NCBI GenBank assembly: GCA_030612665.1
Contig: JAUWNL010000003.1
Location: forward strand, 1 to 55,247
Source: an archaeon
GTDB taxonomy: Archaea > Nanobdellota > Nanobdellia > Pacearchaeales > UBA284
Reading direction: 5' to 3'
DNA: 55,247 nt
Shown: positions 26,354-35,112 of the stretch, one piece after another
Numbering within the stretch: position 1 is the first letter of the stretch
Layout of the letters: each line of letters opens with the position of its first letter
Program-made: the position numbers and the translations under genes
The notes under the pieces: generated by a model
What the model was told of the DNA's origin: nothing
Databases searched by the model: none
What the model saw: only the letters and a program-made list of their open reading frames with translations

Positions 26354-28081
26354 TTATATCCCCCAAGTTGCCTTAATTTTCCTTTTTATTTGAGCAATTT
26401 CTTGAAGTAATGAAATTTCTTCTTTGCTTAAATACTTTTTGTTTTCCCTGAGAATTCTAAACTCATCTTCATTTATATTAGAATAAAGGAAATCATCTTC
26501 TTTAACTTGTCTACCAAACGTGACTTTAGGAAGAGAAATAGCTAATTCTTTTCCTTGCCCTGCTTTATCAATATTCTTGCTTTCATGTTGCATTCCCTTA
26601 ACCTTGGCTATCTCATTCCCATCAGAATTCATTAACCTAACTCCACTTTTCAAGGTTCCAATCTCAATTCGAACACCAAAAACAGCAGGTTTGCTCTGTC
26701 TGAAACAACAATTTCTAAGGATCTTGAGCTTGCAAGGCATTGTAACTTTTTCAAGTTTCTTTCTTTCAATTTCAATGGCTTTCTTTTCTCGCCATTTAGC
26801 AAGTTCTTCAATAATATGATAAATAATCTCACTTTCAATGACATGAATCCTTTCATCACCAATTTCTTCTTCAATTGTGACATTAAAAGCAACAATAACA
26901 GCATTTAATGGCTGAGTTTCTAGATTTGCAATTGCAGAAACAACATTCCCCCGAGTGACATTGCCTATTCCAGCTTTACTGATTTTAATTCCATTTTTCC
27001 TAAGCAAGTCAATAAGTGCCTCAAGCGAGCCAAGACCTTCAGCCTTGACAATAATTCCTTTTTTATCCAGCTTAATTGATTCAGAAATTTCTTTTTGAAG
27101 TTCTTGTTTTAACTCATCAATATCTCCAGTCTTGACAGCAAAAGGCATCCCAGGAACTAGGCCTTCTGTTGTAGGCAGCTGAAGTCTTATCCCAGCTGCA
27201 GCAATAACCTCCTCGCGTAATTCATAACCTCTACCAAAAGGTAATGCCTCAAACAAAGACCTCATCTTTATTACAACAGGCTCTTCAAAACCAGCAACAA
27301 TAATTTCATCTTCCTTTTTCAACCTCCCATCATAAAGAATTGCTTCAATACAAGTAAACCCCTTCTCCTTTTTTATCTCAAGTATTGTGCCTTTTCCTTG
27401 CTCCCCAATATTTAATTTCCCTTTAAGGAATCTTTGAGCAAGTCCAGCAAGCATGACCATTAATTCAGGCAATCCCTCACAGGTTTTTCCAGAACAAGGA
27501 ATAAGCGCGAGTTGTTTGCTAAAATTTCCAATTCTATAAAAAATCTCAGAATCAAAACCAAGAGCATTAAACGAGCCCAGAATATTATAAAACTTTTTTT
27601 CAAAATCTTTTTTAGTGAATTCATTTTGACTTTCAATATTCTCGCGAAGATCCTCATGAATTTTCTTCCAACCAGCAATCCTATCAACTTTATTAAGAGC
27701 AACAATAAAAGGAATTTTATTCATTCGAAGCACTTCAATACTCTCACGAGTCTGCTCCATAATTCCTTCATTAATATCAACCACAAGAACAGCAAGGTCA
27801 GCAAGTGCTCCACCACGTTTCCGGAGATTTGTAAAAGCAGCATGTCCTGGAGTATCAATAAAAAGAAAACCAGGAATCTCTAAATCTATTCCAAACTTTT
27901 CAAGCAATGAGCCGCATTTCTCTTTAATATGATCTGAAGGAACTTGAGTAAAACTAATCTTTTGAGTAATAGCGCCAGCTTCTTTACCCGCAACACAGGT
28001 GCCCCTAATACTATCTAAGATAGTTGTCTTGCCATGGTCAACATGGCCTGCTACAGTCACGATTGGTTGTCTAATTTTCAT
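26354..28081 (-). CDS. infB: Translation initiation factor aIF5B (IF-2)
   Basis: IRQPIVTVAGHVDHGKT, DTPGHAAFTNLRKRGG, NKVD. Confidence 0.97.
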   Translation of the reverse strand: MKIRQPIVTVAGHVDHGKTTILDSIRGTCVAGKEAGAITQKISFTQVPSDHIKEKCGSLLEKFGIDLEIPGFLFIDTPGHAAFTNLRKRGGALADLAVLVVDINEGIMEQTRESIEVLRMNKIPFIVALNKVDRIAGWKKIHEDLRENIESQNEFTKKDFEKKFYNILGSFNALGFDSEIFYRIGNFSKQLALIPCSGKTCEGLPELMVMLAGLAQRFLKGKLNIGEQGKGTILEIKKEKGFTCIEAILYDGRLKKEDEIIVAGFEEPVVIKMRSLFEALPFGRGYELREEVIAAAGIRLQLPTTEGLVPGMPFAVKTGDIDELKQELQKEISESIKLDKKGIIVKAEGLGSLEALIDLLRKNGIKISKAGIGNVTRGNVVSAIANLETQPLNAVIVAFNVTIEEEIGDERIHVIESEIIYHIIEELAKWREKKAIEIERKKLEKVTMPCKLKILRNCCFRQSKPAVFGVRIEIGTLKSGVRLMNSDGNEIAKVKGMQHESKNIDKAGQGKELAISLPKVTFGRQVKEDDFLYSNINEDEFRILRENKKYLSKEEISLLQEIAQIKRKIKATWGI

Positions 28082-28227
28082 GCAAACTTAAAAGAAAATT
28101 AACTTTTAAATCTTACTTCTTTTTATGCCTTGTAGAAAGAGAATAAGAACACAAGATAAAGATAAATTTAGTTAACAAACAGAGCCCTCTTAGAAAGATT
28201 TAAGAATTAGAAAATTATATACTTTTT

Positions 28228-28560: not shown

Positions 28561-29385
28561 TTACCTAAAAACAATTCCAGCATAACCAACAGCAGTATTA
28601 TAATCCCCAGAAATATCTCCACTTGTATAATAATCAATGAGTTTGGCTTGCCATTTTTTGATTTTAGCTATTTCACTTAAAATTGTTATTCCATATATCC
28701 CACAAACAGTTGATTTTTCAGCTAAACTGTAGAAACCTTTAGAATCATTCTTTGAAATTTCAAGAATCATATTATTATCTAATCTAAACAGGTTTTCCTT
28801 AACATCCTTACTAAATGGAATAAATCCATATGAAGCACCATAATGAGTAAAATCAGATGAAACAATAATTGCTTCGTTAACAATAATCTCAGAAAGAATC
28901 CCAGCAATTTTCTTACAATCTTCATAACTTAATCCACCCAAGATAATAGAAACAATTTCAAATTTTTTCTGGCTAAGTTGTAAAAAAGGAAGCTGAACTT
29001 CAATACTATGTTCAGATTGATGAGCCTTTTCATTGACCTCAACAACAATCCTCTCTTTTTCCAGCTTTTTCATAATTCTCTCACTAAGACTTTTATTACA
29101 TTTGACAATTCCTAAAGGTGTTTCAAAATTCTCAAGACTAAAACATACTTTCGAGCCAATCCCAGAATGATTAACTCCCAAAATAATAAAATCTTTTTTA
29201 TTAGGAATCAAGCTAAATGTCTTGCCAGCAAGTTTCCCAGAAAACATGTATCCAGCATGTGGAACAATCGCAGCATGAACATTCTCCCTTTTACCAGAAC
29301 CAAGAAACTTCTCAACTTGTTTCTTTAATTCATCCTTGTCCGCAGGATAAAATTGACCTGCAACAATTGGTTTTCTCATAGTCAT
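28561..29385 (-). CDS. MEMO1 family protein (AmmeMemoRadiSam protein B)
   Basis: RKPIVAGQFYP, PHAGYMFSG, EHSIEVQLPFLQ, SSDFTHYG, VGYAG. Confidence 0.94.
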   Translation of the reverse strand: MTMRKPIVAGQFYPADKDELKKQVEKFLGSGKRENVHAAIVPHAGYMFSGKLAGKTFSLIPNKKDFIILGVNHSGIGSKVCFSLENFETPLGIVKCNKSLSERIMKKLEKERIVVEVNEKAHQSEHSIEVQLPFLQLSQKKFEIVSIILGGLSYEDCKKIAGILSEIIVNEAIIVSSDFTHYGASYGFIPFSKDVKENLFRLDNNMILEISKNDSKGFYSLAEKSTVCGIYGITILSEIAKIKKWQAKLIDYYTSGDISGDYNTAVGYAGIVFR

Positions 29386-29407
29386 GCAAAATTAAAAGAA
29401 AAAGCAA

Positions 29408-30310: not shown

Positions 30311-31522
30311 TTAAAGCAATAACCATTTCCAAACTGGTCGCACAATCAACTTTTTGCCCCCAACCAAGAACTCATCTTCTTGATTAAAAGTCAAAATTAA
30401 ACCCTCACTTAAACTAAACCTCTTTAAAGCATTTACTAATCCTTCTATTTCCCTGTCTTTATTTTCTTCAGTTAAATCAAAACAAACTTGAATTGCCCCA
30501 GTAATTTTATCTTTTTCTTTGACTACAAAATCACATTCATTTTTTTCCTGAAAATAAAAAATATTTTTGAATCTTCTTCTCAAGCCTAAGAAAACAGCAT
30601 TTTCTAGCATCTTTCCTTTATCCTTTGAGAAAGAAGCAGAATTTGCATAAGAGAAGCCATTATCAATTGAATAGACTTTTTTTGGATTTACTTGTTGCTG
30701 CTTGTATGAATAACTAAATCTTGGGATTGTGAATATTAAATAAGAATTCTCGAAATGAGATATATAATCAATAACACTCTGAACTGACTTGATTTTAAAC
30801 ATCTTCTTTATAGAATTATAAGAGAATTCTTTTCCTACATTGCTAATGAGATAAACTGCAATTTTGTTAAGTACATCTGTATTTTTTATGCCAAACCTGA
30901 CAGCAACATCTTTCATAACTACATCTGAAAGCAGCTCATGATTAATAGCAGGATCATCTTTTTTCAGATATTCTGGAAAACCTCCTTTGTTCAAATATTC
31001 CTCGAAAGATTCTGCTGACGGCCTCTTCTTTTTCATATCCAAAAATTCCCTATATGAAAATGGAAATAATTCTAACTGTAGGTGCCTGCCAGTCAGTTTT
31101 GTTCCGAGCTCAGTGCTTAACAGAGAGGCATTAGAACCTGTTATCAAGACTTTTTCCTTTTTGTCAATCAAATATCTTATGAATTTCTCCCATTTTTTAA
31201 TGTTCTGGATTTCATCAAAAAAATATATTCCTCCTTCACCATATAACTCTTTCATTATCTGCTCGGCTTTGTTAAAATCAGAAAGCTCAAAATCCCCCAA
31301 TCTGGGGTCTTCAAGATTGAGATAGCAGCCTCTTTTCTGTTTTTTTAAAATCTGGTGGAGAAAAGTGCTTTTTCCACATCTCCTTATTCCTGTAATCAAA
31401 AGAGCAAAGGAGTCCCTAATTTTAATGTCTTTTATTTTCTCTCTCAAAATGCCAAGATCTAATCTGTTTAAAGACTCTCTTTGCGCAAGTATTACTTCTT
31501 TAAGCATGTCACGTGTTATCAT
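30311..31522 (-). CDS. AAA_14 / DUF4143 ATP-binding protein
   Basis: GIRRCGKS, FFDEIQ, ITGSNA, LTGR, GGFPE, ENAVF, ECDFV...IQVC. Confidence 0.92.
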   Translation of the reverse strand: MITRDMLKEVILAQRESLNRLDLGILREKIKDIKIRDSFALLITGIRRCGKSTFLHQILKKQKRGCYLNLEDPRLGDFELSDFNKAEQIMKELYGEGGIYFFDEIQNIKKWEKFIRYLIDKKEKVLITGSNASLLSTELGTKLTGRHLQLELFPFSYREFLDMKKKRPSAESFEEYLNKGGFPEYLKKDDPAINHELLSDVVMKDVAVRFGIKNTDVLNKIAVYLISNVGKEFSYNSIKKMFKIKSVQSVIDYISHFENSYLIFTIPRFSYSYKQQQVNPKKVYSIDNGFSYANSASFSKDKGKMLENAVFLGLRRRFKNIFYFQEKNECDFVVKEKDKITGAIQVCFDLTEENKDREIEGLVNALKRFSLSEGLILTFNQEDEFLVGGKKLIVRPVWKWLLL

Positions 31523-31553
31523 AGGATTATAGTGTTCATAAGATATATAAATC

Positions 31554-31595
31554 TTTCTATTAGCAGTAGAAACTATTTTCTATTTAGAATAGAAA
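31554..31595. promoter_or_regulatory. Two TTTCTA-N7-TAGAAA palindromic boxes upstream of the ATPase
   Basis: 31554-31572 and 31577-31595, adjacent to the TATA-like element. Confidence 0.55.
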
Positions 31596-31724
31596 CTTTA
31601 ATCTCCAGAGAAAATTTAGAGCTGAAGTGATTGAAGTGACAGAGTTGTAAGAGAAGTTCGCGCCATTTTCCAACAGCTTATAAGAAAGTCAATTAAATCA
31701 ATCTTCTTCTTTCTCTCACCTATC

Positions 31725-32984
31725 TTACTTCACTTCTTTTATCTCCTTTATCCCCATTTCTTTGAGCTGACTTTTGGGAATTCTCCTAATGAGTTTTTTC
31801 ATATCAAAAATCTTTCTCTGTGCTTTAGCATATAATCTCTTGTTCTTTACAAAGGTTTTTTTCCATGTTTTTTTGAATTTCTTAATATGTTTTTCAGGGA
31901 TATTCAATGGAGGCCCAGCAATAACATAATTTTTTTCTGGTTCTTTGTAAATAAAATAAAATTTTGCTTCTAGATTTTTCTCAGAAAATCCAAAAATACT
32001 TCTTATAACTTTAAAACCATTTTTTTTAAGAATAAATTGCAGATATTCATAGAATTTCCTTGTTTTGCTACCAGCAACATCAACTTTCTTTTTTAATGTA
32101 GTAACTTGAATTGTCACAAATTTTGCTTTGTTTCTCTTTGTTTCTTTCTTTAATGCTTCAATGTTTATTTCATGTTTAAAAAAATATGATTCTGAAGATC
32201 TTTTCAAGTATTTTTTGGCGACTTTAATAAATTTTTCAAGTGTCTTAAAACTAAGAGCAGCTGCAGCATTCCTATCTTTCTGAACAGGATCAATAAGAAT
32301 GATTGGTGAATGAAGTTTTGCTTTGTTTAATGAATGCATTACTTGTGCTTTGCTTGAATAATATTTCTTAGGATCAATAACTATTTTTTCTTTTCCATTC
32401 CATTTTGTCATTGCTCTTAGGAACTTCATGAATGAGCCATAATAACAAACAAGAACTTCAAGAACATAACCACTAAATCCGCGGATGTAGGATTCAGCTC
32501 CATAACAATCAGCACTATAGCTAAATGCCTTGGCAAGCCTAATTTCATCAGCAAGTTTCTTATTCTTTTTTATCTTACTTAGAATATAAGTGACATGAAG
32601 AGGCGAGACATCAGTAATATTTACTGCTTCTTCTGCTTTCTTGATTTTAAGTATTGGAACTAATTCAATTGTAATTTTATTGATTTTGACTTGAAAATAA
32701 TCCCTAGAACCATGAAGTCTTATTGCCTTGATTTTATGTTTTTTTAAAATCTTGCTTAGAAAATCAGCAAGTTTATGGCTCTGCTTAGCCATCTTATAAG
32801 GAAACATGACAAAAACATCCACATCATAACCTTTATCTCTCTTGACAAGAGTTTTCTTGGCATAACTTCCTCCAATAAAAAGTTCTATTCCTCTGCCTTT
32901 AATCTTCATAACTCTGTTTAGAGCTTCTTTTATCTCATCAAGATCTTTTTTCTCAGGCCTTATTTTTTCAAATACTTTTTTCAT
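31725..32984 (-). CDS. cca: CCA-adding enzyme (archaeal class I)
   Basis: GGSYAKKT...DVDVF, DVSPLH, YGAESYIRGFSGY, IDPVQKDRNAAAAL. Confidence 0.93.
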   Translation of the reverse strand: MKKVFEKIRPEKKDLDEIKEALNRVMKIKGRGIELFIGGSYAKKTLVKRDKGYDVDVFVMFPYKMAKQSHKLADFLSKILKKHKIKAIRLHGSRDYFQVKINKITIELVPILKIKKAEEAVNITDVSPLHVTYILSKIKKNKKLADEIRLAKAFSYSADCYGAESYIRGFSGYVLEVLVCYYGSFMKFLRAMTKWNGKEKIVIDPKKYYSSKAQVMHSLNKAKLHSPIILIDPVQKDRNAAAALSFKTLEKFIKVAKKYLKRSSESYFFKHEINIEALKKETKRNKAKFVTIQVTTLKKKVDVAGSKTRKFYEYLQFILKKNGFKVIRSIFGFSEKNLEAKFYFIYKEPEKNYVIAGPPLNIPEKHIKKFKKTWKKTFVKNKRLYAKAQRKIFDMKKLIRRIPKSQLKEMGIKEIKEVK

Positions 32985-32986
32985 AC

Positions 32987-33400
32987 TTATTTCAACCCCT
33001 TTTTAATTATATAAATTAATTCCTTTATATCTTTTTCTAATTCTTCTGTAATTGAATGGAAAACAATTTCATCATCTATACTGCCATACTCATGAGCAAT
33101 TATATTTCTCATACTCTTTGCGTCTTTAAGTTTTTCTGTAAGTTCAGACGAAATTATTTTATTTTGTAAAAGAATATCAAATGCATGTAAATCACTTTCT
33201 GGAAGAGATAACCTTCTTTCTTTAATAAATAAAAATGTTAAATCAATTACTGCTTCTATAATTATTTCAGCATATCTCTCACATGCAGCTTTTGCCTTTA
33301 AATCGTGAATATATTCTTTTAGATTAATTGGTCTTATTTCATTAAGTTCAGATAAATATTTTTCTATATCTTTAATTTTATCTTTAATTCTTTCGTTCAT
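32987..33400 (-). CDS. HEPN/DUF86 (HepT-like) RNase toxin
   Basis: RNIIAHEY = RX4HXY motif; start MNERIK. Confidence 0.9.
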   Translation of the reverse strand: MNERIKDKIKDIEKYLSELNEIRPINLKEYIHDLKAKAACERYAEIIIEAVIDLTFLFIKERRLSLPESDLHAFDILLQNKIISSELTEKLKDAKSMRNIIAHEYGSIDDEIVFHSITEELEKDIKELIYIIKKGLK

Positions 33401-33890
33401 ATAAAACTTTCCCCTTATTATCAATTTCTTTTTTTATTTTATCTGGAAGAATATTATAAACCTGTATTTCTATTTTTTTGTTTACTTTTCTTAAAATATC
33501 TAATCTAAATTGCATAGCTTCTTTTTTTGTAATTTGAAAAAATTCTACTGCAAGGTCTATATCAGAAGATAAAGTTAACTGGCGTTCTACTATTGACCCA
33601 AACAAAATAATTCTTTTTATTCTTTTGAAATATTTGCTTTCTAGAATAACTTCTTTTGCTTCGGAAATCATCTCTTTGATTATTGCTCCATGTTTGAGTT
33701 GAAAATCCTTAACAAATGGTGCAAGTGCATTAATTGCTTCAAACTTTTTTCTTATATCTCGAGAAAGCCTTGTTTTTTCTGAAGCTTTCAAACTCACTCC
33801 AAGCAATTGCTTCTCAATAATCTTTAACTCTCTCTTTCCAAATATTTTCCTTAGATTTTCGTCCTTTTTAACAACACTTAATAAATTCAT
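33384..33890 (-). CDS. Minimal nucleotidyltransferase (MNT/MntA-like) antitoxin with N-terminal extension
   Basis: LFGSIVERQLTLSSDIDLAV = GSX10DXD; overlaps HEPN gene. Confidence 0.9.
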   Translation of the reverse strand: MNLLSVVKKDENLRKIFGKRELKIIEKQLLGVSLKASEKTRLSRDIRKKFEAINALAPFVKDFQLKHGAIIKEMISEAKEVILESKYFKRIKRIILFGSIVERQLTLSSDIDLAVEFFQITKKEAMQFRLDILRKVNKKIEIQVYNILPDKIKKEIDNKGKVLYERKN

Positions 33891-33895
33891 TTTAT

Positions 33896-33932
33896 TATCT
33901 CCATTGTGATAATAGTTATCAGCATAGCGATA
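33896..33932. promoter_or_regulatory. Two TATC-N8-GATA boxes, putative MNT-HEPN operator
   Basis: 33896-33911 and 33917-33932, between the TATA box and the start codon. Confidence 0.5.
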
Positions 33933-33939
33933 TATTTAA

Positions 33940-33999
33940 ATCTTTCTTTTCTGGCCTTATTTTTTCTAATACTTTTTTCATTTCAGTTTCTTTTCTCAT
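33940..33999 (-). pseudogene. Relic copy of cca 5' end (MRKETEMKKVLEKIRPEKKD)
   Basis: 38/42 nt identical to 32943-32984 (MKKVFEKIRPEKKD); retains GAGGT RBS at 34003-34007. Confidence 0.88.
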
Positions 34000-34111
34000 A
34001 TAACCTCAAAAGAATTGAAATTTAAAAAAGCTTGGTTATTCTCTTAATTATACTAACGAGTATATTGCCAAAAAATATTTAAGATAAGAATTTCTTTTAT
34101 TTTATATTAAA

Positions 34112-34897
34112 ATGACAAACTTTCATTTTGGTCCTGCTGGTCTCGGTGGTGTTAAAGAAGCAATTGGAAATCTTGAAAGATACAAGAAATTAGGTCTTGA
34201 TGCCTGTGAAATTGCTTTTACTTATCAAGTTTATATAAAGAAAAATTCTGATGCCAAAAAGATTGGCAAGGCTGCACAGAGGTTAGGAATAAAGCTTAGT
34301 ATTCATGCTCCTTATTATATTAACCTCGCAAGTAAAGAAAAGAAAAAGATTGAGGCAAGCAAAAGAAGAATTCTTGATTGTTGTGAGAAAGCTCATTGGC
34401 TTGGAGCAGATTATGTTGTGTTTCATGCAGCTTATTATAGTGGCAGGAATGAACAAGAAATTTATGAAATTGTCAAGAAAGAAATAATTGATATGCAGAA
34501 AATTATTAAACAGCGAAATTGGAAAGTGAAACTTTGTCCTGAAACAACTGGCAAGAAAAGCCAGTTTGGCTCGCTTGATGAATTGCTTAGACTTGCCAAA
34601 GAAACAGGATGCTTTTTTTGTGTTGATTTTGCTCATCTTCTTGCACGTGATGGAAAGATTAATTATGATTCAGTTTTTGGAAAGCTAAAAAATCTTGTGC
34701 ATATTCATTCTCATTTTTCTGGAATAGTTTATGGCAAGAAAGGTGAACAGAGACATGTTGTTACTGATAGTGAGAAACTTTTGCAATTGCTGAGATTTGC
34801 CAAGAAAAATCATGTCAAAGACATTACAATTATTAATGAAAGTCCTGATCCTGTTGGAGATTCAATTAAGGGCCTGAAGATGGCTTCTAAACTGTAA
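34112..34897 (+). CDS. nfo: Endonuclease IV-like TIM-barrel (AP endonuclease family 2)
   Basis: FGPAG, SIHAPYYINL, VFHAAY, PETTGKKSQFG, VDFAH, NESP. Confidence 0.88.
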   Translation: MTNFHFGPAGLGGVKEAIGNLERYKKLGLDACEIAFTYQVYIKKNSDAKKIGKAAQRLGIKLSIHAPYYINLASKEKKKIEASKRRILDCCEKAHWLGADYVVFHAAYYSGRNEQEIYEIVKKEIIDMQKIIKQRNWKVKLCPETTGKKSQFGSLDELLRLAKETGCFFCVDFAHLLARDGKINYDSVFGKLKNLVHIHSHFSGIVYGKKGEQRHVVTDSEKLLQLLRFAKKNHVKDITIINESPDPVGDSIKGLKMASKL

Positions 34898-35112
34898 TTT
34901 TTCTTTATTTTCCTTTTCCGACGCTATTTTTACAAGTTTTTCTTGATATTATTAGTTACCACTTGTGTTGGGTAACAAATAACCGAACAATAGAAAGCTT
35001 TATAAGGCATTATCACTTGAAAATAGCAACACATTTTTAGTTTACATGAACTCCATGCAGGCTAAAAAAATTATAAAAAATTAAATTAAACTAAAAAACA
35101 AAAAAACAAAAA

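Follow-up and report, generated by a model that had tools for sequence, protein, structure and literature searches.

In the archaeal contig JAUWNL010000003.1, the 5' end of cca, the gene for the CCA-adding enzyme, is present twice, once on either side of a small two-gene cassette predicted to encode an MntA/HepT toxin-antitoxin pair. We analysed a 55,247-nt stretch of this contig, hereafter the window, which belongs to a 667,650-base assembly (G000, 83.55% complete); labels in C denote contigs of an assembly, labels in G genomes and labels in L cassette loci, and X1-X4 are public sequencing runs. Our preferred interpretation, to which we give a probability of roughly 0.7, is that the cassette entered cca by illegitimate, microhomology-guided recombination, as an insertion with long target duplication that may have been produced in a one-step template switch.

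All of the elements concerned lie on the minus strand, where a TATA-like box and a GAGGT precede a 26-codon stub, followed by a transcription factor B recognition element with its TATA box (BRE/TATA), a small palindrome, GGAG, mntA, hepT, two bases and then cca. The direct repeat (family D1) pairs codons 7-20 of the stub (33940-33981) with codons 1-14 of the working cca (32943-32984); 38 of 42 nt are identical (90%), and the copies lie 997 nt apart, start to start. The stub open reading frame (ORF; 33919-33999, MRKETEMKKVLEKIRPEKKDLNISLC and a stop) most likely runs from the native cca start into the cassette promoter, as judged from the sequence and from a comparison of N-terminal lengths. 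The initial annotation had described four differences between the copies, all at third codon positions and three of them synonymous, and the alignment holds exactly these: TTA/TTT (Leu/Phe), CCA/CCT, GAA/GAG and AAG/AAA. The upstream ATG (33999) and the GAGGT (34003-34007) that it saw kept ahead of the stub are both present, the stub copy ends in AAAGAT at 33940 and is followed by the TATA-like TTAAATATA (33939-33931), and the coordinates bear out a working cca whose ATG (32984) lies 2 nt past the HepT stop (32989-32987).

The duplication of the cca 5' end around the MntA/HepT pair is real. The 42-mer has no third match anywhere in G000, even with up to 9 mismatches, its two copies pair in a self-BLAST of the assembly with E = 6.4e-8, and the flank-to-flank alignment reaches z = 16.8 against 200 shuffles, with a score above those of all 2,756 non-cognate flank pairs from related cassettes. 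The structure was further compared, over positions 31700-35000, with assembled Logan contigs of the four public runs, which come from two studies. In X2, from a study other than that of X1 (the probable source run), one contig spans 31700-33053, from HepT to cca, with 6 differences, and a second spans 33029-34197, taking in HepT, MntA, the stub and the nfo start, with 7 differences; an X4 contig spans 33214-34931. Lack of read support at the junctions had been named as grounds for giving up the duplication; contigs from two studies bridge both of them, so the structure is not an assembly artefact, and the repeat and cassette exist together in related strains, which excludes a chimera of assembly. 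The right junction has strain variants at 32997 and 32999, and no variant is listed for the X2 strain in the stub copy. One joint of low support, from 32576 to 33414 (side 25, one run), is inconsistent with the 997-nt unit. No RNA run is listed as containing the stretch.

Comparison with relatives suggests which of the two copies holds the native start. An orthologue of cca occurs in 56 of 61 related genomes. In the window the gene (31725-32984, third cistron after MntA and HepT) has an intact frame of 419 aa with head nucleotidyltransferase (NTP_transf_2), tRNA_NucTransf2 (8e-33) and CAA_C domains, the make-up of a class I archaeal CCA-adding enzyme, and its product is 44-62% identical to 55 orthologues. 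The nearest upstream in-frame Met lies 5-27 residues from the conserved V-x-x-K-I motif in 28 of 29 relatives (median 9, none at 3 or fewer), some of these distances being extrapolated from alignments that start a few residues in; it is 3 residues away from the working start and 9 from the upstream ATG of the stub. The suggestion that the stub keeps the original start thus agrees with the relatives, whose median equals the stub's distance and all 28 of which exceed that of the working start. This supports MRKETEMKK... as the original N-terminus, with an internal Met now serving as start. The putative native signals (34000-34030) comprise the GAGGT and a TATA-like TTTTAAAT at about 34020-34027, 21-28 nt before the ATG, which, given the usual spacing in archaeal promoters, we take to be the native cca TATA element.

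The stub might instead be a selected leader peptide or upstream ORF that would couple transcripts from the native promoter to expression of the cassette and cca, or the linkage to cca might itself have a function, in that Cca would repair the tRNA 3' ends which HepT trims; Songailiene reportedly described in 2020 a HEPN toxin that trims tRNA 3' ends. The stub ORF is indeed intact, with its start, its GAGGT and no frameshift, and it is identical in the X2 strain. At 26 codons, however, intactness carries no statistical weight, the comparable stubs at two related loci (L037 and L065, see below) carry stops or have lost the start, and cassettes of this kind abut 21 gene families among 36, cca being one target of many. 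We find a selected role for the stub or for the linkage hardly credible.

The cassette genes are recognizable from their domains. MntA (33384-33890, 168 aa) has Polbeta (4.9e-14, residues 88-167) and NTP_transf_2 matches and a GS-x10-DID motif, GSIVERQLTLSSDID, as in MNT nucleotidyltransferases of HepT/MntA type VII systems; the MNT motif is defined as GS-x(9-10)-DxD. HepT (32987-33403, 138 aa from the ATG at 33403; PF01934, 4e-27) combines a HEPN domain with RNIIAH, an Rx4H form of the Rx4-6H signature, and adjoins the MNT gene in one operon, the two genes overlapping by 20 nt (33384-33403). By predicted domains, motifs and gene order, the pair is a HepT/MntA type VII toxin-antitoxin, a class in which the toxin stops growth and is neutralised through AMPylation by the antitoxin. 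Residues 1-85 of MntA (33636-33890) form an N-terminal extension that belongs to no Pfam family; the region is conserved (KIFGKRELKIIEKQL...SEK.RLSRDIRKKF), and related cassettes have paired palindromes of the type AACC..GGTT or GATAA..TTATC between TATA box and start. Together with the palindromes of the 33891-33930 region, the MntA N-terminal region suggests autoregulation through a DNA-binding domain.

Several lines of sequence evidence support the view that the MntA/HepT pair is a horizontally acquired, foreign cassette, as the initial annotation had proposed. At the cca loci of 29 relatives from the same family and order, none has MNT, HEPN or nfo within 1.5 kb. MntA homologues (E <= 1e-25) are patchily spread: of 401 genomes in the order 59 have one, and of 24 in the family 4. 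Those most similar to the window MntA, at 72-76% identity, sit in genomes whose Cca is only 44-47% identical (the 72-74% copies are from another family), whereas family members with Cca at 50-62% identity have MntA at 53-57%. G+C content is 25.6% in the cassette, 29.7% in cca and 31.1% in the window. G000 has five HepT-like genes, and MntA has no relative in any of 72 candidate viral contig stretches.

DNA homology to the closest cassettes begins on the left at 33946-33955, where 7-16 nt of the stub repeat are still to come, and ends on the right at 33000-33002. Because of this left limit, the cassette brings its own BRE/TATA, GAAAGATTTAAATATA (33946-33931), which opens a predicted promoter and leader (33891-33946) with a quasi-palindrome GATAACTATTATC (33920-33908) and a GGAG (33902-33899) 8 nt before the ATG. 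The layout recurs in related cassettes, with AAAGATTTAAATA upstream of mntA in 10 of 54; the motif AAAGATTTAWATA occurs 17 times in G000, and the 21-mer GAAAAGAAAGATTTAAATATA is found in G000 at two sites only, here and, identically, at a paralogue of the cassette on C20. Over its last 7-12 nt the stub repeat is common to cca (GAGAAAAAAGAT) and to the cassette, exactly so for AAAGAT and at 10 of 12 positions over the longer stretch. The promoter motif had been suggested as the junction microhomology, and this is what we observe: AAAGAT is shared by cca codons 13-14 and the cassette BRE, and homologous cassettes carry the motif. The unit itself is 997 nt long and encodes only MntA and HepT, well within the limit of 20 kb without a mobility gene used by Furuta 2010 for such inserts; the repeat is unique and, at 42 nt, exceeds their 30 bp, although counting its last 12 nt as cassette leaves 30 nt, right at the threshold.

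On the right, cassette homology ends eleven bases before the HepT stop. There a 15-nt filler, GGGGTTGAAATAAGT (32985-32999), absent from other cassettes, supplies HepT with its G-L-K tail and stop, and within it TGAAATAAGTA copies repeat bases 2-12 in near-tandem, with 10/11 matches. The tail and stop of HepT therefore come from junction sequence; HepT C-terminal tails vary among cassettes.

From these limits we propose the following course of events. A cassette of about 950 bp, with its own BRE/TATA promoter and operator-like palindromes, would have arrived horizontally and inserted at codon 14 of cca, its left join within AAAGAT and its right join just before the HepT stop. The nascent strand would leave cca at AAAGAT, copy the cassette and re-enter cca upstream of its exit point, in one step of replicative template switching that would need no recombinase encoded by the cassette; the near-tandem 11-mer may be a stutter on re-entry. 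The native promoter and start would now drive only the 26-codon stub, which reads into the cassette promoter, and a cca shorter by six N-terminal residues would restart 2 nt after the HepT stop. As the genes are laid out, cca must be co-transcribed with mntA-hepT; it would be transcribed last in an MntA-HepT-cca unit, from the cassette promoter and probably also from the native one, for which read-through across the stub appears likely.

The same scar surrounds other members of the cassette family. An order-level search (set 1) gave 64 loci and 52 cassettes with both flanks usable: 12 copies were dropped at first, 11 without a complete HEPN-size ORF (including the first of two tandem copies at L048, of which the second was kept) and one with its MNT start off the locus, after which L053 and L060 were restored and L095 was dropped as a slicing artefact. 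A scan of genome contigs (set 2) gave 80 loci, less 25 duplicates of earlier loci and 12 without a HEPN ORF; 44 had flanks. In all, 8 of the 96 cassettes (52 + 44) have a clear target duplication, of 22-72 nt, that bounds the cassette exactly, or nine with L042; as the cassettes are kin, such counts are not independent. Cognate flank scores in set 1 were 32 for the window, 21.5 for L037 and 17.5 for L042, these three lying above essentially all non-cognate scores, and 14.5 for L065; that of L042 stems from a 20-nt promoter duplication.

Besides the window, with 42 nt of the cca 5' end, the duplications are found at L037 (genome G015), where the cassette sits on nfo and a nfo 5' stub (MAEIKFGPAGI...) precedes the TATA box; at L065, on the 5' end of a LigD-phosphoesterase-like gene, confirmed at the protein level; at L120 (72 nt) and L128 (64 nt), both on the 3' end of a convergent gene, L120 having the closest MntA (76%); at L147 (50 nt, 49/50, a gene 3' end); at L180 (33/33 nt); and at L161 (23 nt), whose tRNA-like repeat resembles, by eye, the 5' part of a tRNA gene. 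Among the 36 set-1 cassettes abutting a co-directional gene, protein-level stub scores were 71 for cca, 53 for the LigD-phosphoesterase-like gene and 51 for nfo, against a 99th percentile of 38 for non-cognate pairs and a maximum of 52, given by another LigD-like gene with the L065 stub. The same search in set 2 found none of 20 abutting genes at a score of 36 or more, the repeats there having been found by the DNA flank test only. Copy number was checked for five of the eight repeats: those of the window, L120, L128 and L180 have two copies each in their own genome, and that of L147 has four in one array. A further 80-nt flanking repeat, at L057, was rejected as a target duplication because it is dispersed, matching its own genome 12 times; neither Rfam nor ARAGORN gave a hit there.

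Two features of the window junction prove common in the family. In L147, L120, L128 and L180 (4/8) the HepT stop is contained in the downstream repeat or straddles its edge, so the toxin ORF is open at the right end of the cassette. A co-directional ORF of at least 80 aa starts between -45 and +30 of the HepT stop in 36 of 51 set-1 and 20 of 41 set-2 cassettes, the baseline among G000 ORFs of 200 aa or more being 96 of 358 (27%) (binomial p = 9e-11 for set 1, overstated by kinship). Because most set-1 cassettes thus abut co-directional gene starts, a cca start 2 nt after the HepT stop is typical of the family. The downstream genes of the 36 recur, with LigD-phosphoesterase-like genes and membrane proteins five times each, pgk four times, and nfo and HAD twice each. 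At L147 (1614-3890) there are four copies, one of them partial, of the 3' end of a gene for a large surface protein; copies 1 and 2 enclose MntA-HepT, and another, unlike cassette of two genes (91 + 120 aa) stands before the last copy.

Could a recombinase acting in trans have integrated the cassette site-specifically, with the 42-nt repeats as attL and attR? Such a process could be modelled on the integrative elements that archaea have at tRNA genes, on Xer-dependent elements, or on phage 21 or e14 with their surrogate icd end, and repeat lengths of 23-72 nt fall within the range of archaeal att sites. The tRNA-like repeat of L161 would suit such a process, and G000 does encode one tyrosine recombinase (PF00589). 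That recombinase, however, is the only one found in the 83.55%-complete assembly and lies on contig C41, the unit itself has no integrase or recombinase, and the viral contigs yielded no relative of the cassette. Nor do the eight flanked cassettes have a junction core in common: their repeats are unrelated and, measured from the TATA box, their ends vary by 0-45 nt. We therefore regard integration in trans as very improbable.

The four differences between the window copies all lie at third positions, which suggests, as a weak signal, divergence of both copies under coding constraint. The signal is weak because two differences, GAA/GAG and AAG/AAA, fall within the 12 nt that the cassette may have supplied (GAAAAGAAAGAT is also found in the C20 cassette), and because TTT/TTA is polymorphic: at position 32970 the working copy has TTA, like the stub, in X2 and in part of X1 (9.6 of 21.4 depth). 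The third-position argument for the window is weakened to this extent, a single fixed difference, CCA/CCT, being left outside the cassette-shared part, and the four-difference pattern by itself decides nothing.

A number of observations weigh against insertion by template switching. The template-switch step is a model, which may describe the event but which we infer rather than observe, and the 15 nt at the right junction are unexplained in origin. Only 8 of the 96 cassettes have the scar, and most insertions arose otherwise or have lost it. The state before insertion is inferred, the best relative having a Cca about 62% identical, too distant for DNA alignment or for showing MRKETEMKKVL placed immediately on cca. 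No empty site was found at the cca loci of the 29 relatives, in the metagenome scan or in the contigs of the four runs, and no contig of these runs skips the 997-nt unit, contigs being unable to show absence; the metagenome contig scan with Cca returned one locus only, at 44% identity. Finally, hand counts from alignments put the third-position share of differences between repeat copies at 4/4 in the window, 3/3 in L037 (core), 5/7 in L120, 3/6 in L128 and 10/20 in L065, and this lean fits copies that diverged as working genes in separate lineages better than it fits decay in place.

Divergence in separate lineages is what Campbell-type integration would predict. Here an imported fragment, circular or anchored at one end, would carry the cassette together with the cca 5' end of a related donor lineage and recombine with the resident cca across that short homology; the repeat copies would be donor/recipient hybrids, and excision between them would regenerate the circle, giving a life cycle that needs no recombinase. 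Apart from the third-position excess at several loci, this would account for the L120 stub keeping its frame and stop codon, for the same downstream genes recurring across genera (LigD-phosphoesterase-like, pgk, nfo and HAD), and for the L147 array, where two different two-gene cassettes are each bounded by the 3' end of one gene. It would also suit the pattern among strains X2-X4, whose divergence from the window is about 0.4-0.6% in cca plus cassette and 2.3-8.6% in nfo; the step, at about 34150-34200, just inside nfo, looks like a recombination boundary beside the unit. Such integration, however, needs a prior duplication at each new target and so cannot be the origin of the structure. The window moreover keeps just the one fixed difference once the two cassette-shared positions and the polymorphic one are removed, and neither a circular junction nor an empty site was seen among the contigs of the four runs, which are unable to show absence. 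As the explanation for the window we consider Campbell-type integration unlikely, though template switching and recombination with an imported copy may both operate, one as origin and the other as means of spread.

Repeat-bounded units are not confined to this locus. Comparison of G000 with itself gave 18 direct-repeat pairs (24-200 nt, at least 82% identical, 300-4000 nt apart). At C19:31664-32739 a 43-nt repeat of the 5' end of the downstream gene, with the same anatomy as at cca, encloses an MNT-type gene and a small partner (weak HEPN, E = 0.007). Other repeats bound MNT and HepT genes (C20:28325-29176, 125 nt), an MNT gene and an unassigned partner (C8:11367-12708, 37 nt), a NYN-domain gene and the 5' stub of the downstream gene (C41:53495-54500, 46 nt), and a PNP_UDP_1 nucleoside phosphorylase (C41:56820-57868, 49/49), and at C16:30736-33556 two tandem AAA_14/DUF4143 ATPase genes are separated by three repeat copies. 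The checked units measure 0.7-1.4 kb, with repeats of 36-125 nt from gene ends.

The two paralogous MntA/HepT cassettes of G000 are linked by further upstream similarity. The 13-mer ATGAGAAARGAAA occurs at three sites only in G000, all flanking these cassettes: at the upstream ATG of the stub (window 33985-33999) and at C20:2692 and C20:3805 (L032 1287 and 2399), of which one lies 219 nt ahead of the C20 cassette and the other where the DUF357 gene (PF04010) directly after its HepT begins. The upstream ATGAGAAAAGAAACT also bears an unexplained resemblance to the start of this DUF357 gene. Collinear identical blocks of 14, 10 and 21 nt link the upstream regions of the two. A cca origin for the first codons of the DUF357 gene is unsupported, as its orthologues have similar Lys/Glu-rich N-termini and the DNA match, at E = 0.068, is at chance level; the positions of the 13-mer are nevertheless hard to credit to chance. 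One X4 contig matches the window cassette up to 33933, inside the TATA box, and then continues into unrelated sequence whose loose-end letters are absent from G000, which suggests that the same habitat has a similar cassette in other surroundings.

The divergent neighbour of cca in the window is nfo (34112-34897, plus strand), encoding a TIM-barrel AP endonuclease (AP_endonuc_2, 1.4e-26); none of the 29 relatives' cca loci has a divergent nfo-cca arrangement. Related cassettes lie directly upstream of nfo at L037 (G015:C4, 1374-3231) and L072 (genome G325), of which only L037 has a nfo 5' stub. That nfo adjoins cassettes in the window, G015 and G325 may be coincidence or reflect a common hot spot. 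After cca comes an ATPase gene (30311-31522) of the AAA_14/DUF4143 kind that is repeat-flanked on C16, with a 23-nt tandem repeat and a 26-nt inverted repeat around a BRE/TATA-like motif in its upstream region (31543-31602). Elsewhere in the window, a 40-nt direct repeat (28059-28098 and 29363-29402, 85%, E = 4e-4) is shared by an aIF5B-like gene (26354-28081) and a Memo-like one (28561-29385), in each of which it spans 5' untranslated region and the first eight codons; as the N-terminus of either protein appears native, the repeat may be due to chance.

The closest parallel lies in bacterial restriction-modification systems, for which Nobusato et al. reportedly described long target duplication with gene complexes in 2000. 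Small selfish units of this kind, with no mobility genes, are flanked by repeats longer than 30 bp, and in the available text of Furuta, Abe and Kobayashi 2010 (PMC2853133) the mechanism is left open and no archaeal case survives the screen. What is described there resembles the present case in its small unit with neither transposase nor integrase and in repeats that vary in length, are nearly identical and often overlap the ends of genes (PMC2853133). Here, however, the cargo is a predicted type VII toxin-antitoxin, the host is a small-genome DPANN-type archaeon, no genome with an empty site is at hand, and it is the 5' coding end of an essential gene that was hit and turned into a downstream cistron. 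HepT/MntA (HEPN/MNT) type VII modules are themselves well known (PMC7641770, PMC11586414, PMC4621449), and Makarova et al. 2009 described MNT-HEPN modules as mobile and noted that some had recently been inserted into operons (PMC2701414). The window pair, which we know from its sequence, is like them in having MNT upstream of, and overlapping, the HEPN RNase gene, in its two catalytic motifs and in its patchy, mobile distribution; it differs in the additional 85-residue region of MntA, and the available portions of these sources describe neither an insertion mechanism nor a flanking duplication.

Phage 21 and e14 at icd and archaeal elements at tRNA genes encode an integrase, use a fixed core site and carry a replacement gene end. 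As with these elements, a second copy of the target end abuts the insert, the target remains functional and the displaced fragment lies opposite; unlike them, the present unit has two genes only and its junctions differ by locus. Effector/immunity cassettes of the bacterial type VI secretion system undergo additive displacement by homology-facilitated illegitimate recombination (PMC5361080), and in what that source makes available they likewise enter beside a conserved gene segment, leave relic ends and build arrays (compare L147), although that system is bacterial, has a long homology anchor and leaves 3' modules as relics. In main texts, outside supplements, we found no description of such duplications around toxin-antitoxin cassettes, of their occurrence in archaea or of an essential-gene 5' end split in this manner; long target duplication for archaeal toxin-antitoxin cassettes has apparently not been described before.

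A broader proposal, which we offer tentatively and think rather doubtful, is that DPANN-type archaea harbour recombinase-less mini-cassettes, mostly MntA/HepT with an open-ended toxin and their own promoter, that colonise the ends of housekeeping genes through long target duplication on insertion. The repeat would act as a portable homology arm, the excised circle would re-enter the same gene end in other lineages and so build arrays, and the essential gene would be held hostage: if this is true, imprecise loss of the cassette would kill expression of the essential gene behind the toxin.

The movement of bare two-gene toxin-antitoxin modules that have no recombinase has rarely been traced at the sequence level. 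At cca the scar can be read to the base, in a promoter microhomology, in the doubled start of the gene and in a toxin ORF whose end is made up of target sequence, and its recurrence within a 0.67-Mb genome and among relatives extends a bacterial restriction-modification phenomenon to archaeal toxin-antitoxin cassettes, the recurrent junctions offering many natural cases for work on the mechanism. An essential tRNA-maturation gene that appears, from its position, to depend on transcription of a selfish operon would represent a route by which cassettes become hard to lose under strong genome reduction.

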